Assembly: GCA_951406725.2 (NCBI GenBank)
Contig: OX597834.1
Coordinates: forward strand, 22,444,001 to 22,508,000
Reading direction: 5' to 3'
From: Octopus vulgaris
Lineage: Eukaryota
Length of the DNA stretch: 64,000 bases
A program made the translations under genes and the position numbers. The notes below the pieces were generated by a model. The model did not search any database. It worked only from the letters and a program-made list of their open reading frames with translations, and had not been told where the DNA came from. Below are positions 6,840 to 63,757 of this stretch, one piece after another; position 1 is the first letter of the stretch; each line of letters opens with the position of its first letter.

Positions 6840-7460
6840 TTTAAAGTTCAATGGAATCTAAACCATTGGGTGCGGATTGTGAAGCTCAAGTGATATTTAG
6901 CCATGTGAGGAAGGATCACACAAGCTCAGTGGAATATAAACCATCTGGGGTAAAGAAAGATAATGGAAGCTCAAGTGATATTTAATCATTTGATGCAGAT
7001 TTGTGCAGCTCAGTTGAATCTAAATCATCATATGAAGGATATGGAAGTTCAAGTGATATTTAATCATCTGGTGTGGATCATGCAAGCTCAGTTGAATCTA
7101 AACAACTGGGGAAGATCGAAGCTCAAGTGATATTTAACTATCTGGTGCTGATCATGCAGCTCAGTTCAAACTCAACTATCTGGTGCTGATCATGCAGCTC
7201 AGTTCAAACTCAACTTTCTGGTGCTGACCATGCCAGCTCAGTGGAATATAAATCATCTGGTGAAGATTAGGAAACTCAAGTGATATTTAATTATCTGGTG
7301 CAGATCATGTAACTCAGTTCAACCTAAACCTTCTGGGGGAAGATCTTGGAAACTCAAGTGATATTAAAACCGTCTGGTGGGGCTCGTTCAGCCCAGGTGA
7401 TATTTAACTAATCAAACCAAATCAACAGGTGATGATTGTGAAGCTCAATGGTACTTAACC
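6840..7460. repeat. Degenerate ~38-39-bp minisatellite with ~77-bp dimer structure
   Basis: Alternating gaagctcaagtgatatttaa and caagctcagttgaatctaaa motifs at ~6881, 6921, 6966, 7006, 7044, 7083, 7118, 7157, 7195, 7233, 7271, 7310, 7349, 7389. Confidence 0.85.
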
Positions 7461-24879: not shown

Positions 24880-26470
24880 AATTAAGTTAATTTTTGGCTC
24901 AAAAAGCAAAAGTAAGGCCATGTAGGGGGACATGGAGTTATGTACAGGGAGGGTGTTCATACAAAGAGTTCAGGCCATTTCTGGTCAAGAGAGACTTTGA
25001 ACCGAGCGATCGTCGGCATCTTCACTATCTCGTCCGGCAGCTTATTCCACGGATCCGCAACCCAGACGGAGAAAGCCCCTCTCCTATTGAGATGAAATCG
25101 TCGCAGATAGAGCTTTTCGGAGTGACCCTGCAGCTGATGCTCTGGAGCAGGAGTGAAGAACAGCTCTTTCGAGAGGTTATACTTTCCGCTTATGATGTTG
25201 TGAGCGAGAATGAGATCACCACAGCGGTGGCGTTTTTCTAGAGAATAAAGGTCAAGCATCTTCAGCCTTTCTTCATAAGACAAATGCTTGAGACCAAGAA
25301 CCATGCGGGTAGCCAGCTTCTGGACTCTTTCGAGATGATGTATGTCTTTGAGGAGATAAGGAGAAGAGGCTTGAATCCCGTACTCCAATATGGGTCTCAC
25401 CAGCGTGACATAGAGCGGTAGGAATATGGCTGCTGTGAGCATTCCGAATGACCGTCGAATCAAAAACACAACTCTGCATGCTTTGTTGGCAGCATGGACG
25501 CATTGGGCCGAAGGCGAAAAGGAAGAATCCACAAAGATACCCAGGTCCTTTACCTGGTCAGTCATCTCCAGCAGCAGACGACCCGGCTCGAAATCAAGTT
25601 GAGTTGCAGGAGAGGAGCCAACAAGCAGATGACAGCACTTTGACACGTTCAGACACAGGTCCCATTCGTTTGACCATCTCCAAACTTGTTGGAGGCATCC
25701 ACAAAGATCATCTATAACACTGCAAGGAGTGACCAGTTTGACATCGTCGGCAAATAGAAGGGTGTGTTGCGTGAGGTCGTCGGGCAAGTCATTTATGAAG
25801 ACTAAAAATAATAAGGGCCCAAGCACTGAACCATGAGGCATGCCACTGCTCGCACTGGAGACATCGGACAGCGAACCATTAACTTGGACTTGGAAGGAGC
25901 GATCTGAGAGGAAGGCACCAACCCATCGTACAATATCCGGATGGAAACTATATGCTTGAAGCTTGACAAGTAATAGGCGGTGGTTAACCGAGTCAAAAGC
26001 TTTGGCAAAGTCCAATAAAACGATGTCAACAGCATCACCATCATCCAGGATACACGTCACCAATTCTTCCATTACCAGTAAGTTGGTCAAGCATGATCTC
26101 TTCAGCACGAAGCCGTGTTGGGAATCAAAGATAGAGGCTGTGTTTTGGAGGTGAAGCAACATACTTTTCTTGAGGATGGTTTCGAACATCTTACTGATTA
26201 TTGAAGGGAAACCGGTCGGTAGTTAAGCGGGTCTTTGCGGCTCCCTTTCTTGAAAATCGGGCAGATTATCGCTGTTCTCCAGTCCGCACGTACAACACCC
26301 ATCGCCAATGACATATTGAATAGAAGTGTTAAAGGATCGCAGATGACCAGAGCCAACGCTTTGATAACCTGTGGGTGTATGCCGTCAGAGCCGTGACCCT
26401 TGTTGACATCGAGGCCTTGAATGACGCTTTCGACTTCGTCCCGAGTGATGACCAATCTAGGCATATCATA
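24880..26470 (-). mobile_element. 5'-truncated CR1-clade-like LINE (RT domain and C-terminus)
   Basis: ORF 24957-26189 (410 aa) with QHGF...RSCLTNL, LDFAKAFDSV, GMPHGSVLGPLLF, FADD, KDLG, RPILEY, LERVQ. Upstream frameshifted ORF 26198-26464 (PIFKKGSRKDPLNYRPVSL). Visibly more GC-rich than the flanks; interrupts a TTAA-type MITE. Confidence 0.92.
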
Positions 26471-29101
26471 GTCATTATTAAGTTGGTGTCAGAATATAAA
26501 TTAGCATGAAATTTTGGTGGAAGGTTTTAAAACAGGAAGTTTGTATCAAAGAACCAGGAATGGTCTCAGGTAGATTGGCATCAAAAGGATAAAGAAACTT
26601 TTAATTTGACATATAAGCAATCAAGAGAGTATAATGCTCTTTCCTGACCCTGGAAGAAACACCAGTCCATCACATCCTCAGCTATTACTGATATCCATTT
26701 ACACCTGAATGGACTGGAATAATGAGAAGTGAAGTTCATGAACATAGTAACACTGCCCAATCTGGGAATTGAAACCATGAGCCTAATGACCCTGAGTACA
26801 ATACCCTAACCACTAGACTATGCATTTTTCATCATTTATTAAAGAAAGGCTTTTCATATTGGCAAATAGTCACTCCCCTGTGGCAGGGCACTTGAACCTT
26901 AGTATTTAACTGGTATCCATTTTATTGACTCCAGAGTGATGAGTGGCTAAGTCAACCACAATTGTGAACTTAGAATGTTAAGAGGATTAATTAAATATGG
27001 GAAGTCAATTTGTTCAACACTTTCTTAATTTTGTCATCATCATCATCATCATCATAATAATAATAATAATAATAGTTTCAGATTTTGGCACAAGGCCAGC
27101 ACTTTTAGGGGAGAAGTAAGTCAATTACATCCACCCACAGTATTCAGCTGGTACTTATTTTATTGACCCCGAAAAGGATGAAAGGCAAACTCAGCTTCAG
27201 TAGAGTTTGAACTCAGAATGTAAAGATGTACAAAATGCCACCAACTGTTTTGTTCTGGAGACTAACAATTCTGCTAACTTACCATTTTCATGCTAAAGAA
27301 ATATTTCTTTTTTTTTTTTAAGTTGCAAGACACTTAAGAACTGGGGTTCTTAATCTCCCTAGGAGTATTTTGAGCTCACAAAGGGCAAAAGGTATTGTGT
27401 GTTTAAATGGAGAGCATGGTTTTTCTTAGAAATGAAATCTCTTAACTCCTTTGATACCAACTTGCCTGAGACTGCCCCTGGTTCTTGTACAGAAATGCAA
27501 TCTAAATGAAAATCTTCCATGTTAATTTATGTTCCAAACACTAGATTAACCCTTTCATTACCAACTTGGCTGAAACCGCCTCTGGCTTTATAGTACAAAT
27601 GCCTTATTTTCATGAGTTTTGAATTAAAACCTTCCACCAAACCTTAGTCACAATTTATGTTCCTAACACTATCTGAATTACAACTAAGTCATTTTACTAA
27701 ATTCTCTGTTATATTTAAAATTAATTGAAAGAAATACAGAGCATCTCAACAGAAATACAGTAACGAAAAAGTTAATAATCTTTTCTACTATAGGCACTCA
27801 GAAAGTAAAGACAAATGAAATTTTGTCCCGACATCAGTTCATTGATTCTGTCAGCTCACCACCTTAAAGACCAGGTAAATGACAAAATTATTTAATAAAT
27901 GCTTCATTATTTTAAAAATTAATTCAAATAAAGGCAGTGAACTTCAATAGAAATATGGTAACAAAAGGGTTAAGTAGATCTTTCTCTATCTTTCACAGAA
28001 TCTTTTCTACTCTAGGCACAAGGCCCAAAATTTTGGGGAAGGGGCCAGTCGATTAGATCAACACCAGTACTAAGGAATTTATATACAATTATAAATTGCC
28101 AGTACCATTTGCAGAGAAACACCCCCACACCATGATGTTGCCACCTCCAAACTTTATGGTAGGAATTGTGTTTTTCGGTGAATAGGCAGTACCATCTTTC
28201 CTTCCAAATATGGCTACATGAATTTCTTCCAAACAATTCAATTTTAGACTGTTACTTAATTTATCGATTCTGAGAGGATGAAAGGCAAAGTCGACTTTGG
28301 TGGAATTTGAACTCAGAACGTAAAGACAGATGAAATACTGCTAAGCATTTCACCTGGCATGCTAATGTTTCTGCCAGCTTGCCGCCGTTCTGCCTTTTGC
28401 AGAATGGCAAACATTTGAACCAAACTTTTTGGTTCCTTACCTGCCAACTTACAAGATTCTTAACCGTTCTGATACCAACTCAGCTGAGACTGTGCCTGGT
28501 TCTATGATACAAATTTCCATGTTTTTAAGTGATCTAAATTATAATCTTCCATTCAAATTTCATGTTATGTTCCGGTCATCAGATTAATAATGACAAACTT
28601 ATCTTAATTAATTCTTTTTATATTTTTAATAAACTGAAAAAAGAAAATGGCAATATATTTCAATAGAAATTTGATAACAAAAGAGTTAAACCAGTTAGAG
28701 ATTTTATACTTTAAACAACATTTTCAAAAAATTTTTGGTCAAGATTAGATGAATCAAACATTCTATTGTCAGTAAGCTGAAACAGGACTGATGATGTGTT
28801 AAGGGCCAACATAGCTTCATTGACCCTTTAGCATTTAAACTGGCCATATCCAGCCAAAATATTCTACCTGTTTTATGTTCAAACCAGCCAGATTTGGCCT
28901 CTCACATCTGCCCTGCAATATCATTCTGCATATAAACAATCAGGTCATTGAAATCTCAAAGATTAAATCAAATCAATGGGAATAAAGAAGCATTGCATTT
29001 GACAGAATAATCTGAATGTTAAAGGATTAAATAAGGGAAAAATAACAAGCAAATCACTCCTATATTGCATTCTTTACTGTTGAAAACAGGACTCATTGGA
29101 T

Positions 29102-30223
29102 CAGTGGTTCTCAACCATTTTTTTCTGCCTATGAACCCTTTTGATTCTTAATCTATTCAGGTGGACCTCCCCTGCCCTAGCCATTCAATGTTTTAAAAAT
29201 CCTATTATATTTTTATGATTGAATATTATTAGGAATTGTATAAAAAAAGGCTGTTAAAATATTTTGTGCATTGTAGAAGAATAACCAATTTATTGCGAAT
29301 AAATTTTAACATGGGGGTCATGAGGAATGCAGGCCTGGGGGATAGCAGCATTGGAGTGAGGATTGGAGGAAGAAATATTAATAACCTTCGCTATGCAGAC
29401 GATACAACCCTGCTGACGGAGAGTGGTAAGGATCTGGAGGATCTTGTCCTGCTGGTCAAGAAAGAGAGTGAGAAATTTGGGCTGTACCTCAATGTTAAGA
29501 AAACAAAGATCATGTCAACAGCAGCCACAACAAACATCAGCATCAAGATCGATAATGAAGAGATCGAAGTGGTTGATGATTTTCATCTTCCTTGGCTCCA
29601 AAATAAATTGAGATGGTGACTGCACTCCAGAAATAAGACAGCGGATAGTACTAGGCAGAGAGGCAATGGTCAGTATGAGCAGGGTCTGGAAGAGTAGAGA
29701 CATCAGACTCGCTACCAAATGCAGATTGGTGAATGCAATTGTCTTCCCAATAGCAACATATGGATGCGAGTCCTGGACACTAAAGAAAGCTGACCAGAAG
29801 AGAATTAATGCATTCGAGCTTTGGTGTTGGAGAAGACTTTTACAGATTCCATGGACAGCGAGGCTCACCAATGGAGAAGTCCTTAAGCAGATCAGGCCGA
29901 ATATGTTGCTAGAAGCTAGGATCACCAAGCATAGCTTGGCATATTTTGGTCATATTATGCGGAGAAAATCCCTGGAGAAGGACATCATGCTCGGAATGGT
30001 CAGTGGCAAGAGAGGAAGAGGCCGACCAAGAACCCGCTGGCTTGACACCATCAAGAGTGATACCAGAATGGACATAGCCAATCTGAAAGAAGTGGCCCAG
30101 GATAGAACTGACTGGAGGACACTGATCCAACGAGTAACCTAGAGTCGACTTCGACTGAGCGGATAAATAGATAGATAAATTTTAACAAGAACATCTTATA
30201 TGGACACTGGTTGAGAACCATTG
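29102..30223. mobile_element. hAT-like MITE interrupted by the RTE
   Basis: TIRs cagtggttctcaa... / ...ggttgagaaccattg. Related uninterrupted copies at ~40428-40678 and ~31790-32007 (reverse). Confidence 0.65.
29312..30174 (+). mobile_element. 5'-truncated RTE-clade (BovB-like) LINE with 13-bp TSD
   Basis: GVRIGGRNINNLRYADDTTL...GLYLNVKKTKIM and VFPIATYGCESWTLKKADQKRINAFELWCWRRLLQIPWTAR...GRPRTRWLD; one frameshift near 29585; (atag)n tail; TSD ataaattttaaca at 29299-29311 and 30175-30187. Confidence 0.93.
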
Positions 30224-35140: not shown

Positions 35141-35291
35141 TCAATGGAAATCCGATTTGTGGCAGCATTTACAGAAGGAAGACAATTTCTTCAAGTCTTT
35201 TTTCAAAATGTTTCTAAATTCTCCATCTCTTCCAGCATAAACAAATACGTTGATGGCACTGTTCATGAAAAGCAGAATGCGGACGGTGGCT
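35141..35291 (-). CDS. GPCR terminal exon encoding TM7, helix 8 and C-tail
   Basis: Acceptor ttttgtacctttcag|; phase 2 matches the TM6 exon. (R)ATVRILLFMNSAINVFVYAGRDGEFRNILKKDLKKLSSFCKCCHKSDFH*: NSxxNxxxY, helix-8 EFR, Cys cluster; TGA at 35141-35143. Confidence 0.88.
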
Positions 35292-37039
35292 CTGAAAGGT
35301 ACAAAACGTAAGACGTAAGTTTAGATATACTAATGGTAATTTTAATGGGAAAACAAATTGGCAAGAAAATTAGTAAGCAACTGAGGAGATAAACTGAAGC
35401 CCTGTAAGTGAATTTGGTGGAGAGAGGCAGAAAGGAACATTATCACCATCATTATTTAATGTCTGGCCAAACAGAAGACTGCACCAAGTTTCACCATCTG
35501 TTGTGGCAGTTTTTATAGCTGAATGCCCGTCCTAACACCAACCACCTTACACATACACACACACACATGTATATATATATATATATATATATATAACAAT
35601 TTAGGTGTAAAATTCAGGTAAGGGATATTAGATATCCAAAGAATTTATTGATTTATATTACCTACATCAATACCAATGTTATAGAAAGGAATATTTATAG
35701 ATTTAAATTCAGGAATTTACATAATTTCAGTTAGATTATTTACTTATTTATGATTAAGCTTGCTCTTATAAAGCGTTTTTGTAAAGCCTTAGCAGTTAAA
35801 AATATTTTCAATTGATATTTTTCATCAAATATTTAAGCAGGATGAAGCATCATCACATACTTAAACGGATTTGATTATTAGTGAAAAACTTCATTTTATT
35901 AATGAAGCAGAATCAGCTGTAATTTATGAAATGTATCGTTTGTTTGTATAGAATATTTAAATTGAATTGAATTTATAATTGTTCAATTCATTGTTTTGTT
36001 TTTTATTTCTCATATATATATATATATATATATACATACATACACACATATAGAAAGAGAGACAGAGAGTATGTATTTTTGCACCCTTTGTTAGCTAGTT
36101 TTTCTGTCTATAAGAGTAGGATTAGAATGAAAAGAAAGATGAGAAAATCATATATACATACATACAAAATTGGTTATAGGTTTTAACCTTTGCTTATTTA
36201 TTCATTCTATAATTAAGAGTAATTTGATTTGTTCCCGAATCCCTCATTTATGTATAGTAATGCCCTCTATATAATATATATATATAGCCACTACACACAT
36301 TTTTTTCTGTGTCCCTTTCTGTAGAAGAGCATAGACTTGAAACGTAAAAGACGTTTTCTATTCCTGAGCGTTATACTAATACATCTGTTTGTTTTGTACA
36401 CCACCTGTCTACGTCTTTTGTTCTTTTCGTAAACTCTCCTTATATATATATATATATATAATGTGCAGGAGTGGTTGTGTGGTAAGTAGCTTGCTTACCA
36501 ACCACATGGTTCCAGGTTCAGTCCCACTGCATGGCAGCTCAGGCAAGTGTCTTCTACTATAGCCTCAGGCCAACCAAAGCTTTGTAAGTGGATTTGGTTG
36601 ACCGAAACTGAAAGAGGTCCATCGTGTATATGTGTGTGTGTCCCGAACATCGCTTGACAACTATAGAAGGAAAATCAGAAAAATACAAAGTAACTAATTA
36701 ATTAGGTTTGTCAAAGAAATCGGTTTCTAAGGAAGACGTGTGTACTATGACAGAAACTAAATTCTAAAGAAAGATGCATTCAGCATCCCAGTATTAATTT
36801 AGAGGTAGTATAAATGAATTAAAAATTAACAAGGCATATGTTTAGAGAAGACAATAAGATAAATATGACAAGAAAATAGATAAATATAGTGGAAAGTATA
36901 TATATATATAGAGAGAGAGAGATAAAGAGAAAACTATATATATATAACATGTCTGTTCACTCCAGGTCAGTCCAAATCCACCAAAGAGATATAGTAACTC
37001 TGTGTGTGTGTGTGTTTTATTTAATCTATAGAAAAAAAA

Positions 37040-38125
37040 AATGAAGTTTCTCTTCTCTAGGAGCCAGGACAGTACTTGAACCCTGATACAGGTGTTCAGC
37101 ACATCCTGTGTGTGTCTTGATACCTACACCTTTACCCACCAGACTACCAGGTCCCCTCCAACAGATGTAGCCAAAATTAGATATTTAAGTCTATCATATC
37201 AATAAGAAATTAAAAAAATAGATTTAAATATCTCATTTTCGACTACATCTATTGGGGGGACCCAGTGGTCTGGTGGGTAAAGGTGTAGGTATGAAGGCAT
37301 ATGGTGTGCCGGACACCTGTATCAGGGTTCAAGTACTGTCTGGAGTCTACAAAAGATTATTATTTTTTTTTTTTTTTAAATTTGTGTGTGTGTATGTGTG
37401 TTATTTAAAAAAAAAAAAGTCTCTCTTCTCTGGGCTCCCGGACAGTACTTGAACCCTGATACAGGTGTTCAACACACCATGTGTCTACTACCTACACCTT
37501 TACCCACCAGACCACCGGGTCCCCCCCAATATATGTAGTTAAAAATGAGATACTTAAATCTATTTTATCAATTATAGAAAAATAGATTTAAATATGTCAT
37601 TTTCGACTACCTCTATTGGGGGGACCCGGTGGGTAAAGGTGTAGGTAGTAGACACATGATGTGTTGAACACCTGTACCAGGGTTCAAGTACTGTCCGGGA
37701 GCCCAGAGAAGAGATTTCTTTTTTTTTTTTTTTTTTTAAATAACACACATACACACACACAAATTAAAAAAAAAAAAAATTAATCTTTTGTAGACTCCAG
37801 ACAGTACCTGAACCCTGATACAGGTGTCCAGCACACCATATGCCTTCATACCTACACCTTTACCCACCAGACCACTGGGTCCCCCCAATAGATGTAGTCG
37901 AAAATGACATATTTAAATCTATTTTTTTTATTTCTTATTGATAAAATAGATTTAAGTATCTCATTTCCAACTACAGATGTTGGGGGGACCCAGTGGTCTG
38001 GTGGGTAAAGGTGTAGGTATGAAGGTGGGTAACGGTGTAGGTAGTAGACACATGATGTGTTGAACACCTGCATCAGGGTTCAAGTACTGTCGTAGAGAAG
38101 AGAAACTTTTTGCTTTTTTTTTTTT
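37040..38125. repeat. Nested palindrome of six alternately oriented tRNA-like units
   Basis: Units at about 37060-37153(-), 37259-37348(+), 37432-37521(-), 37623-37705(+), 37792-37881(-), 37987-38092(+). The whole block is an inverted repeat centred near 37570. More decayed copies continue to ~38610. Confidence 0.9.
37259..37348 (+). ncRNA. tRNA-like / Pol III-type unit (representative copy)
   Basis: A-box-like TGGTCTGGTGG, B-box GGTTCAAGTAC, D-stem GTCT/AGGT, anticodon stem TAGGT/ACCTG with an intron-like insert, oligo-T at ~37362. Acceptor and T stems are imperfect. Confidence 0.4.
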
Positions 38126-40859
38126 AAATTTAATCTGTAGAAAAAAAAAATTAAAAGTACTTTGGAAATTCTGGAAGAGATTGAAACCCTCTACCAAGTG
38201 TTAAATTAGTAGTAATCAACACCTCAACCCACAAGACTACCAAAGCAGTTGCAATTTGTGTGTAAATTATGAGATATTTAAACCTATTTTTATTATTGAT
38301 CTAGTGGGGGTGGGGATGGATGTGTAGGCAAAGGGATAGGTAACTTTTATTTTCTTTAATTTTTTTTTGGCGAAGCAGAAAGAAAGAACCCAAAAATCTT
38401 AGTTTACACCTAGGGCAGTGTTGAACCCTGAACATTCATTGTGTTCTTTGCTACTCACTGCCTAAATCTTTATCGACAAGACTACCAGGCATCCCCAAAA
38501 AAGGGATATTTAAGATATTTAAAGCATCACATCACTAATGATGAAAATGGATTTAATTAGCTAATTTTTCACCACAACATTGTAGCACTGAGGGTAAGGG
38601 TGCTCATGAGAAGAATTTTAATACATCGGTGAAGGGACCAAACAATGGGAAGCAGAATGGAATAATGTCATTTTTTTTTTTTGCCATGGTCTCTAGAGAA
38701 TCAAAAGATAAGTGCACACTATTATTAGGACCACCTCAGTGGTTAGGAGGATTAACTAAATATAAGAAGTCACATTTAGTTTATGTGTGTAGGTATATAT
38801 ATATATATATATATATATTGACAGACAACAATGTCTTTATTCTCAGGGACACCAAAAATAGCTACAAAACAGGATATTAAAAATCAATCACAGCATCAGA
38901 TCAATAACCAATTATGAAATATCTAGTAACAGACAGAAGAATTATTTGACAAGGAAAACAAAGACGAATCTCTTGTATGAAATATAAGCCATTGTAACCA
39001 AATAAAATCTAGGAACTCAGCATTAAACAAAGTAGATATTACATCAACCTTCCCATATAATGGAATGGTGAATATAAACCAGGTTCCAAAACCAACACAC
39101 CAGTAGAAAGGAATGGGATACTAGCTATGAACTCAAAAACAATATCAACATTGTAATCAAACTATTCTGATGCCAACCTATACGAGACAGCTTTTGGTTC
39201 CAAGAAACAGACTTCCTATTTTAGTGATTAAAATTGAAACTTTCCATCAAACTATCATGTTAATCTATGTTCCAAACATCAGATTAATAAAATTATTTCA
39301 TTAAATTCTTCATTATTTTCAAAAATTTATTGAAACAAAAGGGTTAAATAGGAGTTATTGATTTGATCCATCTCTACCTTTTACAGAATTGCAAACATTT
39401 GAGCCAGACCTCAGTTTCCTTGTCAACCAACTTGCCAGTTTAATCCTTTTCATGCCAACCGACATGAAACTGCCTCTAGTTTTAAAATGAGCTAAATTAA
39501 AACTTTATCTGCAAGATCCTTTATGTGAATTCGTATGTTGAAACAAATCTTGTTGTATTTGGAGAGAGTCGTTATGCTAAAATAATTAACACACACAAGG
39601 GAGTGGAATGGAAACCTAGACACAACTAAATAAAAACTTTTCATCAAAATTTCATGGTAATTCATGTTGCAAACACCAGATTAATTAATGATAACAAATA
39701 TACTAAATTCTTTATTTTCGAAATTCAAGTAAGAAAAGGGCCAAAGAAGCAAATTAGAAAAATGCTATAGTCATTATGAATACTGAATTCTACAGAGACA
39801 TCACATTTTCCCTACTTTAAAGGGTTTTTTTTTTTCCTTCGCAAATGTAAATAAACCCAATCTGTTTCTTAAACGAGGGACATATTCATACAGCACAGAA
39901 TCTTTTCACCCCAAATGGAGGTGAGCGATTGGTTAAAATTGCCAAAATGCTCGATTTTAAAGTGGAAATATGTTATAACATATAGAACTTTCTCAATAAA
40001 GCCAAGAAAAATTGATGTTTTATAAACACATTCTACCAGTATACAAAGTTTAAAAGTGTTTAGTTAACTAGAAATTGTGTTGACATCTGCCGTTCAAAAG
40101 GAAAAGATCCAATGTGGATAAACCAGAAAATGTTTAAGAAGGAATGTTGCTACTTAATGAACATTGAACGTTAACCCAGAAATGTAAATTTACAAGAGAA
40201 GAACAATATGTAACACCTTTAAAGAATCAACTACAACAAGTATAAACATACCATAAATTTCAGAACAACTGTTAAAGACTGAATTTCTGAGACATATAGA
40301 CACAACTTTACAGGCTTCAGTAAAACCTACTGGGAGCACTAAGTTTTAGAAGAGATGATTTGGATGTGTTAAACCACCTTTTGAAAATAAGGTAACAAAA
40401 ATGCAGAATAGAAAATTGAGTCTAACACAGTGGTTCTCTATCATATTTTGTGTATGGACTCCTTTGAGTTCTATCTTAACTCGGGATATGGGACTCTAAT
40501 TCATGTCTAAAATCTATTATATTTTTATGATTGAATATTGTTAGGAATTGTATTTAAAAAAATGTTTGAATATTTTGAGTATTGTAGAAATGTGACTAGT
40601 TTATTGCACATAAATTTTGACAACAAAATCTTCTATGGAACTCCAAGGACCATATGGATCCTAGTTGAGGATCACTAGTTAAGCAGATGGTCAAGGGGTT
40701 GTCAAACTGGTGGACAAGGGGTCACCGTCAAACAGATGTTGAAAGGGTTTTAGTGAAAGAGGGGACATATTCAAGCTGGCAAGAGGGGCCATGGTCAAGC
40801 TAATAGGCAAGGGGTCATAAGCAAAAAATCATAGTCAAGCAATCAGTTAAAATAATGTA

Positions 40860-43800
40860 CCATAAAAATCCATGTATTTTATGCACTTTTTTGCGCAAAA
40901 ACAAAAATAAATTTTAGTGGGTGCGTAAACTACATAAGTAATTCTGTTTCCAGAATTTTTTTTAGAAATTTTCTTTGTTGAAAAATGATGTAAAAATTTG
41001 TATGGAAAATTGACTCATTTAATGTCAGAATAGGTTTTTACAGAAAAAGATAATGAAGTTGACTTTTATTTATGCTGGACAGTATAATACTTAGATTTTC
41101 TGTATAAATTTACAAAAACCATTAAATGGTCAACTACTTTTTAAAGTTTGACATTCATGCTGGCAATCATGGTCTGGGCCATATTTTACATTGCTTGGAG
41201 TTTCTACCTATCGCTATGGAACCCAGCAATTACCTTAAATATATCAGTTTTTCTCCGCTTAAGGAGTCTAGCTTGCGTTTGCCTCCAGGAAGTAATTGCT
41301 CGCTTCCTCCGCATTCGGACAATGAAATTCATCACTGCCAACGACAATATCATAATTCATCCTTGCACATAGCGTTCCTACAGAAACATTCATTTGCCTC
41401 ATACAATATTTAATGTCATTTCACATTTATGTTGAATTATGCAGCAATCTTATGTTCTCTTCAGAGAACACTTATAATGTATGTGTTACCAGTTCTTTTG
41501 GTATAGTAGATTTTTGCTATTTTTGTTTGTCTCCTCACAGATGTGAGGAGTCATTTCTTAAATTTCGCACCTCTCTTGTTCAATAAACACCGAGTTAAAC
41601 TTGCAAAACTGTTTCTTTTCGCCTTTCAATTTTTAATGTTTATTTAAGCAGGTTACCAAACTATCAGTATAGTCTCCCAGCTAATTTGGTAATGACAAAT
41701 TTTAAGTTTGCTTGAAATTTTATAAGTGTGAAATTGATTAAAATTACTATACTCCGTATCAAAGGTTCCGACAGGAATAGGCAGAAAAGCAGTGCTTGAG
41801 ACAAGAAGGCACTTTCGACCAATCAAAATTCTATTTACATAATCAGTTTGATCAATCACCTTCCTCTGTCGGTTGAGTAAAGTGTCATCCAAGCTGATGT
41901 TTATTAGTAATTAAACTTAATTTGCAACACTTGTGCATATTTATCAGCTTTGTTTTTGTTGATGTTTCTTATCAACAACTTTTCCTGTGGTCGTGATTTG
42001 AGAAGACATACAGCAGTATGCTAAAGATTGGTCATAATCTCTTGTGGGCAAGAAATGTAAAATAAAGTCTATTATAAACAACAAATACACTTCGTAATTT
42101 AATAGCTCTCACTGTGATACCTGTTCAACAGAAATTATTTTTATTTAATGAAAATTTAATAAAATCTAGTCATAACTAACTGAAATTATGCTAAATGCAA
42201 CGAAATTGAAAACCTTTTATCCCTGGCTAGATCGGCAATTCTGGAAACTTTTGGGTGCAAATTTGACATGAGTAGCTTTTTTTTATCAATTTTTATCCTG
42301 AAAATCACCCCCATAAACTACACAGGTGCACAAATTACATGGGTTTTTATGGTAGTCAAAAATACAACTAAATTGAAAACCTATCCCTGGCTAGATCGGC
42401 AATTCTGGAAACTTTTGGGTACAGATTTTACACGAGTAGAAGCTTTTTTTTATCAATTTTTATGCTGAAAATCACCCCCATAAATTACACAGGTGCACAA
42501 ATTACATGGGTTTTTATGGTAGTCAAAAATACAACTAAATAAAAAACCTTCTATCCCTGGCTAGATCAGCAATTCTGGAAAACTTTTGGGTGCAAATTTT
42601 ACACGAGTAGAAGCTTTTTTGTTATAAATTTTTATCCTAAAAATCATCCCCATAAACTACACAGGTGCACAAATTACATGGGTTTTTATGGTAGTCAAAA
42701 ATACAACTAAATTGAAAACCTATCCCTGGCTAGATCGGCAATTCTGGAAACTTTTGGGTGCAATTTTACTCGAGTAGAAGCTTTTTTTTATCAATTTTTA
42801 TCCTGAAAATCACCCCCATAAATTACACAGGTGAACAAATTACATGGGTTTTTATGGTAGTCAAAAATACAACTAAATTGAAAACCTATCCCTGGCTAGA
42901 TCAGCAATTCTGGAAACTTTTGGGTACAGATTTTACACGAGTAGAAGCTTTTTTTGTTATCAATTTTTATCCTGAAAATCACCCCCATAAATTACACAGG
43001 TGCACAAATTACATGGGTTTTTATGGTAGTCAAAAATACAACTAAATTAAAAACCTTCTATCCCTGGCTAGATCAGCAATTCTGGAAACTTTTGGGTACA
43101 TATTTTACACGAGTAGAAGCTTTTTTTTTTATCAATTATTATCCTGAGAATCACCCCCATAAATTACACAGGTGCACAAATTACATGGGTTTTTATGGTA
43201 GTCAAAAATACAACTAAATTAAAAGCCTTCTATCCCTGGCTAGATTGGTAATTCTGGAAACTTTTGAGTGCAAATTTTACAGGAGTAGAAGCTTTTTTTT
43301 TATCAATTTTATCCTGAAAATCACCCCCATAAACTACACAGGTGCACAAATTACATGGGTTTTTATGGTAGTCAAAAATACAACTAAATTGAAAACCTAT
43401 CCCTGGCTAGATCAGTAATTCTGGAAACTTTTGGGTGCAAATTTTACACGAGTACAAGCTTTTTTTTTATCAATTTTTATCCTGAATATCACCCCCATAA
43501 ATTACACAGGTGCACAAATTACATGGGTTTTTATGGCAGTCAAAAATACAACTAAATTGAAAACCTATCCCTGGCTAGATCGGTAATTCTGGAAACTTTT
43601 GGGTGCAAATTTTACACGAGTAGAAGCTTTTTTTTCATCAATTTTTATCCTGAAAATCACCCCCATAAATTACACAGGTGCCCAAACTACATGAGTTTTT
43701 ATGGCAGTCAAAAATACAACTAAACTGAAAAGCCTTCTATCCCTGGCTAGATCAGCAATTCTGGAAACTTTTGGGTGCAAATTTTACTCGAGTAGAAGCT

Positions 43801-46800
43801 TTTTTTTATCAATTTTTATGCTGAAAATCACCCCCATAAATTACACAGGTGCACAAATTACATGGGTTTTTATGGTAGTCAAAAATACAACTAAATTGAA
43901 AACCTATCCCTGGCTAGATCGGTAATTCTGGAAACTTTTGGGTGCCAATTTTACACGAGTACAAACTTTTTAGCAATTTTTATCCTAAAAATCAGCCCAT
44001 GAACTACACAGGTGCACAAATTACATGGGTTTTTATGGTAGTCAAAAATACAACTAAATTGAAAACCTTCTATCTCTGGCTACATCGGTAATTCTGGAAA
44101 CTTTTGGGTGCAAATTTTACACGAGTAGAAGCTTTTTTTTATCAATTTTTATGCTGAAAATCACCCCCATAAATTACACAGGTGCACAAATTACATGGGT
44201 TTTTATGGTAGTCAAAAATACAACTAAATTGAAAACCTATCCCTGGATAGATCCGTAATTCTGGAAACTTTTGGGTGCAAATTTTACACGAGTACAAGCT
44301 TTTTTTTTATCAATTTTTATCCTGAAGATCACCCCCATAAATTACACAGGTGACCAAATTACTGGGGTTTTTATGGCAGTCAAAAATACAACTAAATTGA
44401 AAACCTTCTATACCTGGCTAGATCGGCAATTCTGGAAACTTTTGGGTGCAAATTTTACACGAGTAGAAGCTTTTTTTTAGCAATTTTTATCCTGAATATC
44501 ACCCCCATAAACTACACAGGTGCACAAATTACATGGATTTTTATGGTAGTCAAAAATACAACTAAATTGAAAACCTATCCCTGGCTAGATCGGTAATTCT
44601 GGAAACTTTTGGGTGCCAATTTTACACGAGTACAAGCTTTTTTTTAGCAATTTTTATCCTGAAAATCAGCCCATGAACTACACAGGTGCACAAATTACAT
44701 GGGTTTTTATGGTAGTCAAAAATACAACTAAATTGAAAACCTATCTCAGGCTACATCGGTAATTCTGGAAACTTTTGGGTGCAAATTTTACACGAGTAGA
44801 AGCTTTTTTTTATCAATTTTTATCCTGAAAATCACCCCCATAAATTACACAGGTGCCCAAATTACATGGGTTTTTATGGCAGTCAAAAATACAACTAAAT
44901 TGAAAACCTTCTATACCTGGCTAGATCGGCAATTCTGGAAACTTTTGGGTGCAAATTTTACACGAGTAGAAGCTTTTTTTTTAGCAATTTTTATCCTGAA
45001 AATCACCCCCATAAATTACACAGGTGCACAAATTACATGGGTTTTTATGGTAGTCAAAAATACAACTAAATTGAAAACCTATCCCTGGCTAGATCGGTAA
45101 TTCTGGAAACTTTTGGGTGCCAATTTTACACGAGTACAAGCTTTTTTTTTAGCAATTTTTATCCTGAAAATCAGCCCATGAACTACACAGGTGCACAAAT
45201 TACATGGGTTTTTATGGTAGTCAAAAATACAACTAAATTGAAAACCTTCTATCTCTGGCTACATCGGTAATTCTGGAAACTTTTGGGTGCAAATTTTACA
45301 CGAGTAGAAGCTTTTTTTTATCAATTTTTATGCTGAAAATCACCCCCATAAATTACACAGGTGCACAAATTACATGGGTTTTTATGGTAGTCAAAAATAC
45401 AACTAAATTGAAAACCTATCCCTGGATAGATCCGTAATTCTGGAAACTTTTGGGTGCAAATTTTACACGAGTACAAGCTTTTTTTTTATCAATTTTTATC
45501 CTGAAGATCACCCCCATAAATTACACAGGTGCACAAATTACATGGGTTTTTATGGTAGTCAAAAATACAACTAAATTGAAAACCTATCCCTGGCTAGATC
45601 GGCAATTCTGGAAACTTTTGGGTGCAAATTTTACACGAGTAGAAGCTTTTTTTTATCAATTTTTATCCTGAAAATCACCCCCATAAATTACACAGGTGCA
45701 CAAATTACATGGGTTTTTATGGTAGTCAAAAATACAACTAAATTGAAAACCTATCCCTGGCTAGATCGGTAATTCTGGAAACTTTTGGGTGCAAATTTTA
45801 CTCTAGTACAAGCTTTTTTTTTAGCAATTTTTATCCTGAAAATCACCCCCATGAACTACACAGGTGCACAAATTACATAGGTTTTTATGGTAGTCAAAAA
45901 TACAACTAAATTGAAAACCTATCTCAGGCTACATCGGTAATTCTGGAAACTTTTGGGTGCAATTTTACTCGAGTAGAAGCTTTTTTTTTATCAATTTTTA
46001 TGCTGAAAATCACCCCCATAAATTACACAGGTGCACAAATTACATGGATTTTTATGGTAGTCAAAAATACAACTAAATTGAAAACCTATCCCTGGCTAGA
46101 TCGGCAATTCTGGAAACTTTTTTGTGCAAATTTTACACGAGTAGAAGCTTTTTTTTTATCAATTTTTATCCTGAGAATCACCCCCATAAATTACACAGGT
46201 GCACAAATTACATGGGTTTTTATGGTAGTCAAAAATACAGCTAAATTAAAAGCCTTCTATCCCTGGCTAGATTGGTAATTCTGGAAACTTTTGGGTGCAA
46301 ATTTTACACGAGTACAAGCTTTTTTGTTATCAATTTTTATCCTAAAAATCACCCCCATAAACTACACAGGTGCACAAATTACATGGGTTTTTATGGTAGT
46401 CAAAAATACAACTAAATTGAAAACCTTCTATCCCTGGCTATATCGGTAATTCTGGAAACTTTTGGGTGCAAATTTTACTCGGAGTACAAGCTTTTTTTTT
46501 TATCAATTTTTATCCTGAGAATCACCCCCATAAATTACACAGGTGCACAAATTACATGGGTTTTTATGGTAGTCAAAAATACAACTAAATTGAAAACCTA
46601 TCCCTGGCTAGATCGGTAATTCTGGAAACTTTTGGGTGCCAATTTTACTCGACTAGAAGCTTTTTTTTATCAATTTTTATCCTGAGAATCACCCCCATAA
46701 ATTACACAGGTGCACAAATTACATGGGTTTTTATGGTAGTCAAAAATACAACTAAATTGAAAACCTATCCCTGGCTAGATCGGCAATTCTGGAAACTTTT

Positions 46801-49800
46801 GGGTACAGATTTTACACGAGTAGAAGCTTTTTTTTTTATCAATTATTATCCTGAGAATCACCCCCATAAATTACACAGGTGCACAAATTACATGGGTTTT
46901 TATGGTAGTCAAAAATACAACTAAATTAAAAGCCTTCTATCCCTGGCTAGATTGGTAATTCTGGAAACTTTTGGGTGGAAATTTTACACGAGTAGAAGCT
47001 TTTTTTTTATCAATTTTTATCCTGAAAATCACCCCCATAAATTACACAGGTGCACAAATTACATGGGTTTTTATGGTAGTCAAAAATACAACTAAATTGA
47101 AAACCTTCTATCCCTGGCTAGATCGGTAATTCTGGAAACTTTTGGGTGCAAATTTTACACGAGTAGAAGCTTTTTTTTTATCAATTTTTATCCTGAAAAT
47201 CACCCCCATAAATTACACAGGTGCACAAATTACATGGGTTTTTATGGTAGTCAAAAATACAACTAAATTGAAAACCTTCTATCCCTGGCTAGATCGGTAA
47301 TTCTGGAAACTTTTGGGTGCAAATTTTACACTAGTAGAAGCTTTTTTTTATCAATTTTTATCCTGAAAATCACCCCCATAAATTACACAGGTGCACAAAT
47401 TACATGGGTTTTTATGGTAGTCAAAAATACAACTAAATTGAAAACCTATGCCTGGCTAGATCGGCAATTCTGGAAACTTTTGGGTGCAATTTTACTCGAG
47501 TACAAGCTTTTTTTTTATCAATTTTTATCCTGAATATCACCCCCATAAACTACACAGGTGCACAAATTACATGGGTTTTTATGGTAGTCAAAAATACAAC
47601 TAAATTGAAAACCTATCCCTGGCTAGATCGGTAATTCTGGAAACTTTTGGGTGCCAATTTTACACGAGTACAAACTTTTTTTTTAGCAATTTTTATCCTG
47701 AAAATCACCCCCATAAACTACACAGGTGCACAAATTACATGGGTTTTTATGGTAGTACACATAAAGATACACTCAAAATACAACTACATGGGTTTTTATG
47801 GTAGTCAAAAATACAACTAAATTGAAACCCTATCCCTGGCTAGATCGGTAATTCTGGAAACTTTTGGGTGCAATTTTACACGAGTACAAGCTTTTTTTTT
47901 ATCAATTTTTATCCTGAAAATCACCCCCATAAACTACACAGGTGCACAAATTACATGGGTTTTTATGGTAGTCAAAAATACAACTAAATTGAAAACCTAT
48001 CCCTGGCTAGATCGGTAATTCTGGAAACTTTTGGGTGCAAATTTTACACGAGTAGAACTTTTTTTTTAGCAATTTTTATCCTGAAAATCACCCCCATAAA
48101 CTACACAGGTGCACAAATTACATGGGTTTTTATGGTAGTCAAAAATACAACTAAATTGAAAACCTATCCCTGGCTAGATCGGTAATTCTGGAAACTTTTG
48201 GGTGCAAATTTTACACGAGTAGAAGCTTTTTTTTATCAATTTTTATCCTGAAAATCACCCCCATAAACTACACAGGTGCACAAATTACATGGATTTTTAT
48301 GGTAGTCAAAAATACAACTAAATTGAAAACCTTCTATCCCTGGCTAGATCGGTAATTCTGGAAACTTTTGGGTGCAAATTTTACTCTAGTAGAAGCTTTT
48401 TTGTTATCAATTTTTATCCTGAAAATCACCCCCATAAATTACACAGGTGCACAAATTACATGGGTTTTTATGGTAGTCAAAAATACAACTAAATTAAAAC
48501 CTTCTACCCCTGGCTAGATCAGCAATTCTGGAAACTTTTGGGTGCAAATTTTACACGAGTACAAGCTTTTTTTTATCGATTTTTATCCTAAAAATCACCC
48601 CCATAAACTACACAGGTGCACAAATTACATGGGTTTTTATGGTAGTCAAAAATACAACTCAAAAATACCTATTGAAAACATGGGTATCCTGGCTAGATCG
48701 GCAATTCTGGAAACTTTTGGGTGCAATTTTACCGAGTACAAGCTTTTTTTTATCAATTTTTATCCTGAAAATCACCCCCATAAACTACACAGGTGCACAA
48801 ATTACATGGGTTTTTATGGTAGTCAAAAATACAACTAAATTGAAAACCTATCCCTGGCTAGATCGGTAATTCTGGAAACTTTTGGGTGCCAATTTTACAC
48901 GAGTACAAGCTTTTTTTTTAGCAATTTTTATCCTGAAAATCACCCCCATAAACTACACAGGTGCACAAATTACATGGGTTTTTATGGTAGTCAAAAATAC
49001 AACTAAATTGAAAACCTTCTATCCCTGGCTAGATCGGTAATTCTGGAAACTTTTGGGTGCAAATTTTACTCTAGTAGAAGCTTTTTTGTTATCAATTTTT
49101 ATCCTGAAAATCACCCCCATAAATTACACAGGTGCACAAATTACATGGGTTTTTATCAATCACCCCATAAACTACACAGGTGCACAAATTACATGGGTTT
49201 TTATGGTAGTCAAAAATACAACTAAATTAAAAACCTTCTATCCCTGGCTAGATCAGCAATTCTGGAAAATTTTGGGTGCAAATTTTCGGTAATTCTGGAA
49301 ACTTTTGGGTGCCAATTTTACTCGACTAGAAGCTTTTTTTTTATCAATTTTTATCCTGAGAATCACCCCCATAAATTACACAGGTGCACAAATTACATGG
49401 GTTTTTATGGTAGTCAAAAATACAACTAAATTGAAAACCTTCTATCCCTGGCTAGATCGGTAATTCTGGAAACTTTTGGGTGCCAATTTTACCGAGTAGA
49501 AGCTTTTTTTTATCAATTTTTATCCTGAGAATCACCCCCATAAATTACACAGGTGCACAAATTACATGGGTTTTTATGGTAGTCAAAAATACAACTAAAT
49601 TAAAAGCCTTCTATCCCTGGCTAGATTGGTAATTCTGGAAACTTTTGGGTGGAAATTTTACACGAGTAGAAGCTTTTTTTTTATCAATTTTTATCCTGAA
49701 AATCACCCCCATAAATTACACAGGTGAACAAATTACATGGGTTTTTATGGTAGTCAAAAATACAACTAAATTGAAAACCTTCTATCCCACGCTACATCAG

Positions 49801-51794
49801 TAATTCTGGAAACTTTTGTGTGCCAATTTTACTCGAGTAGAAGCTTTTCTTTTATCAATTTTTATCCTGAGAATCACCCCCATAAATTACACAGGTGCAC
49901 AAATTACATGGGTTTTTATGGTAGTCAAAAATACAACTAAATTGAAAACCTATCCCTGGCTAGATCGGCAATTCTGGAAACTTTTGGGTACAGATTTTAC
50001 ACGAGTAGAAGCTTTTTTTTTATCAATTTTTATCCTGAGAATCACCCCCATAAATTACACAGGTGCACAAATTACATGGGTTTTTATGGTAGTCAAAAAT
50101 ACAACTAAATTAAAAGCCTTCTATCCCTGGCTAGATTGGTAATTCTGGAAACTTTTGGGTGGAAATTTTACACGAGTAGAAGCTTTTTTTTTATCAATTT
50201 TTATCCTGAAGATCACCCCCATAAATTACACAGGTGCACAAATTACATGGGTTTTTATGGCAGTCAAAAATACAACTAAATTGAAGACCTTCTATCCCTG
50301 GCTAGATCGGTAATTCTGGAAACTTTTGGGTGCAAAATTTACTCGAGTAGAAGCTTTTTTTTTATCAATTTTTATCCTGAAAATCACCCCCATAAATTAC
50401 ACAGGTGCCCAAACTACATGGGTTTTTATGGCAGTCAAAAATACAACTAAATTGAAAACCTTCTATCCCTGGCTAGATCGGCAATTCTGGAAACTTTTGG
50501 GTGCAAATTTTACACGAGTAGAAGCTTTTTTTTTTAGCAATTTTTATCCTGAAAATCACCCCCATAAATTACACAGGTGCACAAATTACATGGGTTTTTA
50601 TGGTAGTCAAAAATACAACTAAATTGAAAACCTATCCCTGGCTCGATCCGTAATTCTGGAAACTTTTGGGTGCAAATTTTACACGAGTACAAGCTTTTTT
50701 TTTATCAATTTTTATCCTGAAGATCACCCCCATAAATTACACAGGTGCACAAATTACATGGGTTTTTATGGCAGTCAAAAATACAACTAAATTGAAGACC
50801 TTCTATCCCTGGCTAGATCGGTAATTCTGGAAACTTTTGGGTGCAAATTTTACACGAGTAGAAGCTTTTTTTTTATCAATTTTTATCCTGAAAATCACCC
50901 CCATAAATTACACAGGTGCACAAATTACATGGGTTTTTATGGTAGTCAAAAATACAACTAAATTGAAAACCTATCTCTGGCTAGATCGGCAATTCTGGAA
51001 ACTTTTGGGTGCAAATTTTACACGAGTAGAAGCTTTTTTGTTATCAATTTTTTTCCTGAAAATCACCCCCATAAATTACACAGGTGCACAAATTACATGG
51101 GTTTTTATGGTAGTCAAAAATACAACTAAATTGAAAACCTTCTATCCCTTCATAGATTGGCAATTCTGGAAACTTTTGGGTGCAAATTTTACTCGAGTAG
51201 AAGCTTTTTTTTTATCAATTTTTATCCTAAAAATAACCCCCATAAATTACACGGGTGTACAAATTACATGGGTTTTTATGGTAGTGAAAAATACAACTAA
51301 ATTAAAAACCTTCTATCCATGGCTAGATCAGCAATTCTGGAAACATTTGGGTGCAAATTTTACTCGAGTAGAAGCTGTTTTTTTATCAATTTTTATCCTG
51401 AAAATCACCCCCATAAATTACACTGGTGCACAAATTACATGGCTGTTTATGGTAGTGAAAAATACAACTAAATTGAAAACCTTCTATCCCTTCATAGATT
51501 GGCAATTCTGGGAACTTTTGGGTGCAAATTTTACTTGAGTAGAAGCTTTTTTTTTATCAATTTTAAACCTGAAAATCAGCCCCATAAATTACACAGGTGC
51601 ACAAATTACATGGGTTTTTATGGTAGTCAAAAATACAACTAAATTGAAAACCTTCTATCCCTGGCTAGATCGGCAATTCCAGAAAGTTTTGGGTGCAAAT
51701 TTTACTCGAGTAGAAGCTTTTTTTTTATCAATTTTTATACTGAAAATCACCCCCGTAAATTACACAGGTGCGCAAATTACATGGGTTTTTATGG
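40860..51794. mobile_element. Tc2/pogo-like DNA transposon relic (~1.5 kb body) with tandemly amplified right end
   Basis: Left end TA|CCATAAAAATCCATGTATTTTATGCAC (40860) versus reverse complement of each monomer end CCATAAAAACCCATGTAATTTGTGCAC: 24/27 identical, TA on both sides. End architecture (CCRTA...GCAC TIR, internal GGGTGC subrepeats) resembles TcMar-Tc2 elements. No intact transposase seen. Confidence 0.75.
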
Positions 51795-51800
51795 TAGTTA
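42200..51800. repeat. Satellite array, ~168/171-bp monomer, roughly 57 copies
   Basis: Tandem monomer aaattgaaaacc(ttc)tatccctggctagatcgg(c/t)aattctggaaacttttgggtgcaaattttacacgagtagaagct(n)atcaatttttatcctgaaaatcacccccataaattacacaggtgcacaaattacatgggtttttatggtagtcaaaaatacaact. The gtcaaaaatac landmark falls at 42355, 42522, 42694, 42860 and 43029. Confidence 0.97.
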
Positions 51801-51819
51801 AAAATTTGGGTCTATATTA

Positions 51820-51916
51820 GAAATCTTTATTATTATTAATTTCTTGAAGAACTTACCTGATATAGTGGTTAATATTTCCTTTTAAAGCAATACTGGCATA
51901 AAACTAAATGATAATC

Positions 51917-51949
<33 letters not shown>

Positions 51950-52111
51950 TTCTTGAAGAACTTACCTGATATTGTGGTTAATATTTCCATTTAAAGCAAT
52001 ACTGGCATAAATGATAATCTTTATTATAATTATTATTAATTTCTTGAAGAACTTACCTGATATAATGGTTAATATTTCCTTTTAAAGCAATACTGGCATA
52101 AAAATAAATGA
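51820..52111. repeat. Triple ~90-110-bp tandem duplication of the TM6 exon 3' end and splice donor
   Basis: Three copies of attaatttcttgaagaacttacctgatat...aatatttccttttaaagcaatactggcataaa; minus-strand GT donors at 52055-56, 51964-65 and 51855-56. Confidence 0.92.
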
Positions 52112-52235
52112 CTGTAGGGGTCCAAAAGATGGCAAAGCAACCAAGAAGCGATGTAACCATATAAGTTGACTTTCTCTCTTGGCTTGTTATTGCTGACCGA
52201 GTCACAGAACATTCCTGAATAGCAATCACTTTGGC
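52057..52235 (-). CDS. GPCR exon encoding ICL3-TM6-ECL3
   Basis: Acceptor ttttatttattttgatag|, donor |gtaagt; 179 nt, phase 0 in and phase 2 out. AKVIAIQECSVTRSAITSQERKSTYMVTSLLGCFAIFWTPTVIYFYASIALKGNINHYI: ERK...FxxxWxP TM6 motif. Confidence 0.88.
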
Positions 52236-63560: not shown

Positions 63561-63596
63561 ATCTCCTGCTACACTTCAACAAACCCTAGAAACCAT

Positions 63597-63757
63597 TCAC
63601 ATTGAAGCATCACTCACATTCAAGTACCACTCACACAGAAATAATATTCACACTAGAGTACAACTCACACTGAAGTACCACTCACACTGGAGTATCACTC
63701 ACACTGAAGACTACTCCTACTGGAGTATCACTCACATACTGGAGTGTTACTCATATC
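63597..63757. repeat. 17-bp minisatellite
   Basis: About 9 degenerate copies of cactcacactggagtat. Confidence 0.8.

Follow-up and report, generated by a model that had tools for sequence, protein, structure and literature searches.

A single-locus tandem array in Octopus vulgaris, probably formed in place from the end of a decayed DNA transposon

The stretch of the Octopus vulgaris genome analysed here (the window; 64,000 nucleotides, G000:C21:22444001-22508000 of a 2.8-Gb genome) contains a 9.6-kb tandem array of the end of a non-autonomous DNA transposon, still attached to its parent copy. The most probable reading, to which we give a probability of about 85%, is that this single-locus array arose from an already decayed transposon end by a microhomology-mediated duplication of 171 bp and then grew by unequal exchange, without a demonstrated function. 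The features on which this reading depends are given below, in positions of the window.

40858..40859, no strand: TA target site on the left side, read from the sequence; most family copies begin after TA.
40860..40886, plus strand: single left terminal inverted repeat (TIR) of 27 bp, a CpG-decayed CCGTA-start end; by the orientation of the transposase remnant in sibling elements it is the downstream end.
40860..42352, minus strand: putative non-autonomous Tc2/pogo-like DNA transposon copy, 1.49 kb, without a transposase match.
42193..51805, plus strand: tandem array of 58 transposon ends, head to tail.
42193..42196, plus strand: internal AAAT microhomology, the presumed left breakpoint of the founding duplication.
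42193..42363, plus strand: first unit, whose left half has private and ancestral states, as an edge that is little homogenised.
47753..49410, plus strand: zone with four irregular units (47753-47801, 48643-48819, 49159-49206 and 49207-49410), out-of-register events.
51624..51805, plus strand: last unit, with TIR (51768-51794), TA (51795-51796), flank (51797-51805) and AAAT (51802-51805).

The span of the array was taken from TRF and its units were split by scanning for the end motif, which yielded four irregular units (48, 49, 177 and 204 bp) and 54 others between 163 and 173 bp long, the commonest lengths being 171 bp (16 units), 168 bp (11) and 167 bp (10). The resulting 58 ends agree with the roughly 57 tandem copies counted in a first-pass annotation of the window. 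Each unit consists of the element's terminal ~160 bp, the TA and 9 bp of flank. The annotation's description of the monomer end as the inverted complement of the single left end, matching at 24/27 positions, applies to 43 of the 58 ends (range 18-25), and the dinucleotide after the end is TA in 50/58 and CA in 7/58. Interior units differ from one another by 5.5% on average, a distance that is flat over lag, and the array consensus differs by 8.3% from the family end. The three bases separating the 171-bp from the 168-bp form are present in the family consensus, in the first and last units and in 26/52 interior units, and 171 bp is the ancestral length, from which 168 bp derives through a 3-bp loss.

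The junction between units involves host sequence. It reads TAGTCAAAAAT in 46 of the 57 internal junctions and is one base off in nine more, while the last array end reads TAGTTAAAAAT and the right flank beyond it starts GTTAAAAAT. The junction 9-mer and this flank are identical at 8/9 bases and joined at AAAT; elsewhere in the window, 2 of 5032 TA sites reach at least 8/9 against the junction 9-mer, which is the chance rate. The earlier placement of the junction, with AAAT at 42193-42196 and 51802-51805, was confirmed. Derivation of the junction from internal sequence alone was rejected: it would require about four substitutions among the nine bases, and the flank reading a single one. The family reads CTAAAT followed by ACAACT at the internal breakpoint, as the monomers do. 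The GCAACG previously noted before the first copy is indeed the sequence there, yet it is a later change private to the first unit and not the state that was duplicated, which strengthens this reading of the junction.

The parent copy belongs to a dispersed family. A search with 40840-42360 gave 53 matches (best 39 of 811 candidates scored), and the 20 copies fetched are near full length and 78-83% identical to the window copy. Their ends coincide at TA and their flanks are unrelated; the window copy has TA on both sides, and most aligned copies both start and end at TA. Family length is ~1.55-1.58 kb, and the inverted ends are 27-29 bp in other copies, compared with the 24/27 match in the window. 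Most copies have an end beginning CCGTA, and CCATA in the window copy is this sequence after CpG decay. Divergence from the family consensus is 6.3-9.8% among the 20 copies and 8.2% in the window body, indicating that the family is old. Sharply bounded dispersed elements with both ends, as the first-pass annotation expected, therefore exist. Two longer loci, L051 (2.0 kb) and L052 (4.05 kb), were rejected as full-transposase copies, their extra length coming from insertions and, in L051, from a sibling middle segment.

The array is confined to one place. Genome-wide, all 43 exact junction matches and all 55 with up to three mismatches lie inside it, so the same junction was not found in arrays at unrelated loci. 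Mapping of the monomer likewise gives a single array locus: 57 of 96 matches fall in the array, and each of the 39 remaining loci scored has a single copy (best 40 of 541 candidates). Across the genome, 214 sites match a degenerate 29-base end pattern exactly, 42 of them inside the array; no other array of the family end appears among the 100 TIR matches listed, and the 72 further matches outside the window do not exceed the ~80 that the density of those listed would predict. No tandem end duplication occurs in 45 other fetched family loci. The array is thus not a classical abundant multi-locus satellite, being one 9.6-kb locus still attached to its parent. An import of a satellite formed elsewhere, by recombination with a homologous transposon end, would find hundreds of such ends in this genome. 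However, the junction carries the locus's own flank, found nowhere else, and the first and last units have locus-private changes in common, so that import is largely refuted in the present assembly and retains next to no probability. Origin in place by a duplication seeded at microhomology, as first proposed, is supported by the dispersed copies, the restriction of the junction to this locus and the 8/9 flank match.

The order of events can be read from the substitutions. Nine differences from the family consensus are common to the first unit, a middle unit (m30) and the last unit, and no more than three of the nine occur together in any of 46 ends from 45 other loci. These locus-private changes were therefore present before the first duplication, which must have taken place long after insertion. 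The first unit's left half is private or ancestral and the last unit's right half is ancestral, a pattern expected from a two-copy founder of which only the interior was homogenised. Two ancestral CpG motifs survive in the last unit alone (1/58); the annotation had correctly located these CpGs in the last monomer, but had described them as absent from most others when they are absent from all. Homogenisation is evident from fixed interior changes, a lineage-specific variant and two identical unit pairs (lags 3 and 7), and turnover also from short duplicated runs at varied lags and the four irregular units. In rough substitution terms per lineage, and these values are coarse, insertion dates to ~8-9% and duplication to ~4% (the first and last units differ by 8.4%). 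The split from the lineage of two sequencing runs discussed below (X5 and X20) dates, equally coarsely, to ~1% (15 differences in 837 flank bases in X20).

The proposed history would begin with a dispersed, TA-flanked family copy in an intron of a G-protein-coupled receptor (GPCR) gene, ~60 bp from a copy of a splice donor, whose terminal 160 bp then acquired nine substitutions, both steps being shown by the sequence comparisons. Replication slippage or double-strand-break repair may then have paired the AAAT of the flank with the AAAT 171 bp inside the element, giving two copies. Unequal exchange between sisters or homologues, together with gene conversion, would have raised these to ~58 copies with an interior still turning over, and both outer half-units would have drifted alone. 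The transposase would have had no part in the duplication, the family having already decayed, and the array would be neutral intronic filler. A hairpin trigger was rejected, as it gave no signal (z 0.56).

The parent element itself gives no direct sign of its transposase. Neither tblastn nor Pfam detects a coding remnant in the window copy (two open reading frames (ORFs) tested, no Pfam matches). A sibling subfamily of ~1.25-1.3 kb has both ends in common with it, the common parts measuring ~630 bp on the array side and ~380 bp on the opposite side, and between them holds the start of a transposase; four sibling pieces match Pfam BrkDBD with E values of 1e-4 to 1.4e-3, all under the curated cut-off. 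Because this remnant is read in the direction leading away from the array side, it is the upstream end that was amplified. The locus L087 has an intact-looking open Tc2-like transposase ORF (399-2163) with BrkDBD, HTH_Tnp_Tc5 and DDE_1 and a CCGTA-start end upstream, the one such end located there, and is apparently a younger, separate family. Ends starting with CCGTA we take to be of Tc2 type. L087 and the window family have in common a TA target, a CCGTA-start end of ~27 bp closing in CGCAC and, in the siblings, a homologous N-terminal helix-turn-helix (HTH), whereas the window's subfamily lacks any detectable coding remnant. Assignment of the parent to Tc2-like pogo elements is supported indirectly, by the siblings' HTH remnant and the L087 parallel; the pogo/Tc2 label of the first-pass annotation is borne out to that extent, though the window copy itself has no coding match.

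A cognate transposase was not recovered. Of 152 DDE_1 matches (best 150 of 1958 candidates), the 30 best loci lack both a family consensus match and a TIR match, the sibling HTH query gives high identity only in short frames (best 150 of 354 candidates), and none of the 20/20 HTH-bearing sibling loci examined has a DDE piece. The nearest long ORF to the sibling HTH encodes 458 aa with 51% identity over 41 aa; both this ORF and L087 were rejected as the cognate transposase, as they belong to other families. Thus the genome search that the annotation had proposed recovered unamplified dispersed copies but, among the candidates scored, no autonomous partner.

These results bear on the alternative that a transposase triggered the duplication, by an abortive cut at the end followed by gap repair with template slippage, which would make ends of this family duplication hotspots. 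The right breakpoint lies only 11 bp outside the TIR, as would suit such a cut. In L052, positions 4045-4223 (G000:C6:3057044-3057222) are an inverted local copy of the terminal ~180 bp of that element, placed close to the opposite end, with private variants common to both, and this copy begins within ~20 bp of the position of the array's internal breakpoint. Against this stand the breakpoint itself, which is not at the TIR boundary, the nine locus-private changes, some in binding-type motifs, that predate the duplication, the 45 other loci without tandem end duplication, and the failure to find an intact cognate transposase among 150 scored candidates or a DDE piece in the sibling loci. A transposase trigger is very unlikely, and duplication of an already decayed end is preferred.

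The first-pass annotation had also suggested that a pogo-type TIR in each nucleosome-sized monomer could serve as a platform for a transposase or a CENP-B-like protein. CENP-B is a domesticated Tigger-type transposase, and the CENP-B box resembles Tigger TIRs (PMC5857280, PMC7325037, PMC12321929). Retention of the array as a binding platform, acting on the centromere, on chromatin or on the host receptor gene, would agree with the unit length of 167-171 bp, the location at 22.49 Mb near the middle of the 46.97-Mb contig, the detection of the junction in runs under other species labels, the high array depth of run X5 and the lower variation of TIR cells. The genome also has long open pogo-type ORFs, six of nine scanned being over the CENP-B_N cut-off, so a host protein that binds the array is conceivable. 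Seven loci (L058, L059, L063, L067, L070, L072 and L075) have long open pogo-type ORFs, 504-647 aa between stop codons, that encode CENP-B_N-like, HTH_Tnp_Tc5 and DDE_1 domains; these may be transposases that are still active or genes that have been domesticated. Two loci on C21, L070 and L071, are seemingly near-identical copies.

The evidence on the other side is broader. The array is one locus in a gene intron, has no higher-order repeat and contains no CENP-B box-like match (box pattern, up to two mismatches), the rest of the window having 22 such matches against 42 expected. Its 10-bp WW periodicity is below the control mean, being equalled or exceeded in 73% of 400 control windows. The monomers are of nucleosome size, as stated, but no evidence was found of selection on that length. 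The family end has three copies of a GTGCG-AAATT-type motif, the presumed binding site, and interior units have mutations in every one of them. TIR and rest do not differ in distinct alleles per site (11/27 and 70/141, p 0.65), and the family HTH is Brinker-type, not CENP-B_N-type. Long arrays on many chromosomes were not found, although the assembly could miss collapsed arrays. With no intact cognate transposase among the candidates scored either, the platform proposal is not supported and is highly improbable, and on present sequence evidence a bearing of the array on centromere identity is not supported.

Sequencing runs under four labels bear on the reality and age of the array. In X20 (label D), two contigs span the junction with at least 35 bases on each side, at depths of 82 and 60 against 8-12 for the flank. 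These contigs show that the array is real and, as the run carries another species label, probably older than the split from that species. Junction contigs in X19 (label A; depth 431 against ~46) and X5 (label B; 2688 against 16-26) have 22 bases on the short side, under the bridging rule, and X2 (label A) has one 79-base junction piece with 15. Contigs of X5 and of X20 reach 26-28 bases into the left TIR from the unique left flank, also under that rule. X7 (label C) has family copies, but at 90% none of its long pieces falls on the unique left flank. X19, X20 and X5 have a unit variant, changed at 51618 and 51639, that is absent from the window and not seen in X2, which suggests separate turnover; its depth is ~9 times that of the flank in X19 and X20. 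At 52185 and 52467, X19 has flank alleles in common with X20 and not with X2 or the window, and the run labels may hide two lineages.

Array depth in X5 is raised about ten times more than on other repeats; it may reflect bias, chromatin enrichment or a larger array. The array has 47 GATC sites, at which a chromatin or Hi-C library could be biased. In the same run the flank adjacent to the array (within 51560-51910) also has 15-20-fold depth, and cover is zero at 52072-52231. Such a depth would suit a far longer array, and with the right edge unbridged it could point to an assembly artefact or a badly wrong length. The units, however, differ by 5.5% on average with common variant classes, unlike copies of one unit, and the X20 contigs span the junction. 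Single-contig depths of ~10 (X19) and 12-18 (X20, two contigs) times the flank amount to tens of copies. An artefact or a badly wrong length is accordingly extremely unlikely.

Several points weigh against formation by late duplication of a decayed end. The dating is coarse, with nine changes over 160 bp behind it; the microhomology spans no more than 4 bp, and sequence cannot tell the repair pathway; and the identity of the true right flank depends on the assembly and on TA...TA symmetry. The left flank is unique in the genome, so no paralogous empty site was found. By bin depths, ~51797-51828 seems to be without cover in four runs, leaving the right edge of the array unbridged, and the X5 junction contigs stand unexplained at 100 or more times flank depth. 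Another family copy, L052, has also locally duplicated the same end. Finally, counted per cell, the TIR varies less than the rest (1.4% against 3.3%, a value as low as that of 9% of 27-column windows), which hints weakly at constraint.

The host intron of the array (~16.8 kb; ~35293-52056, minus strand) is the last coding one in a gene for a 343-aa rhodopsin-type GPCR, named 'octopamine receptor beta-2R-like [Octopus vulgaris]' in the source; the array lies between the following features and the next coding exon at 35144-35293.

52057..52235, minus strand: host rhodopsin-type GPCR exon encoding residues ~235-294 of P0001.
51827..52111, minus strand: ~100-bp triplication of the exon end and splice donor, separate from the array, with GT at 52056, 51965 and 51856.

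The first 112 residues of the receptor were not found in the window or in 10 kb on each side. The triplication begins ~30 bp from the array; its three copies are separated by a (TTA)n tract with stops, the donor copy nearest the array is continuous with the intron, and the extra copies are also present in X19, X20 and X5 contigs. Other tandem repeats of the window, at 37033-37996, 6881-7365 and 63592-63753, have periods of ~360, 39/78 and 17 bp. The first of these lies in the same intron, so tandem duplication is frequent locally and has no tie to nucleosome length. ORF fragments resembling LINE reverse transcriptase, recognised by eye from translations, are present at 24957-26488 (minus strand) and 29233-30142 (plus strand).

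Satellites derived from TIRs and from non-autonomous class II elements have been catalogued, and duplication initiated at microhomology followed by unequal recombination is among the mechanisms listed for them (PMC9659126, PMC12628747). Like them, the octopus monomer is homologous to the TIR-bearing part of a non-autonomous class II element; unlike them, its unit is the whole terminus with target site and host flank, attached to the parent at one locus. The TIR-220 repeats of Tetris in Drosophila virilis (PMC4079207) also form kilobase-size satellite-like arrays from a DNA transposon TIR region with a nucleosome-scale unit, but they are internal to the element, whereas dispersed octopus copies have one unit and the octopus repeat crosses the element boundary. 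Xenopus Xstir/Xmix and miDNA4 are tandem repeats from non-autonomous TIR elements, miDNA4 being of Tc1/mariner type with short AT-rich microhomologies (PMC12628747, PMC9659126); their arrays lie inside mobile copies and spread along with them, whereas the octopus array is fixed at one site. Tandem transposons formed by double insertion are a further source of transposon-derived arrays that may seed satellites (PMC5932611), and reportedly start from two insertions, in contrast to the octopus unit, a 160-bp part with flank that was duplicated after decay. Human alpha satellite has a comparable AT-rich unit of ~171 bp, and the pogo-type end motif in each octopus unit echoes the Tigger TIR origin proposed for the CENP-B box (PMC5857280, PMC7325037, PMC12321929); it differs from the single 9.6-kb intronic array, which has no box-like match, higher-order repeat or periodicity and whose family has a Brinker-type domain. 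No literature on this array or on octopus centromeric satellites was found, most subscription journals and supplements lying outside the search.

Satellites from transposon ends are already well described, and the octopus array is an unusually readable but ordinary case of them; it is set apart by its unit of whole end, target site and host flank and by its fully preserved history. The array could conceivably be an incipient alpha-satellite-like element at birth, with a pogo-type end amplified in units of nucleosome size. It would then have been kept across sister lineages, some animals would have hundreds of copies or a special chromatin there, as the X5 depth might reflect, and a pogo-derived HTH protein of the host would bind it. 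We regard this as very unlikely; if true, the array would offer a living model of how a transposon end may become a CENP-B-box satellite, or would regulate a neural GPCR through a variable copy number. Attachment to the parent copy at one locus makes the event order directly readable. The locus still has its parent element, the breakpoint with its microhomology, the mutations that precede duplication and edges that escaped homogenisation, so that insertion, decay, duplication and expansion can be followed in turn. The octopus array argues that a transposon end can seed a satellite without transposase activity, and it could serve to mark turnover rates between sister octopus lineages.

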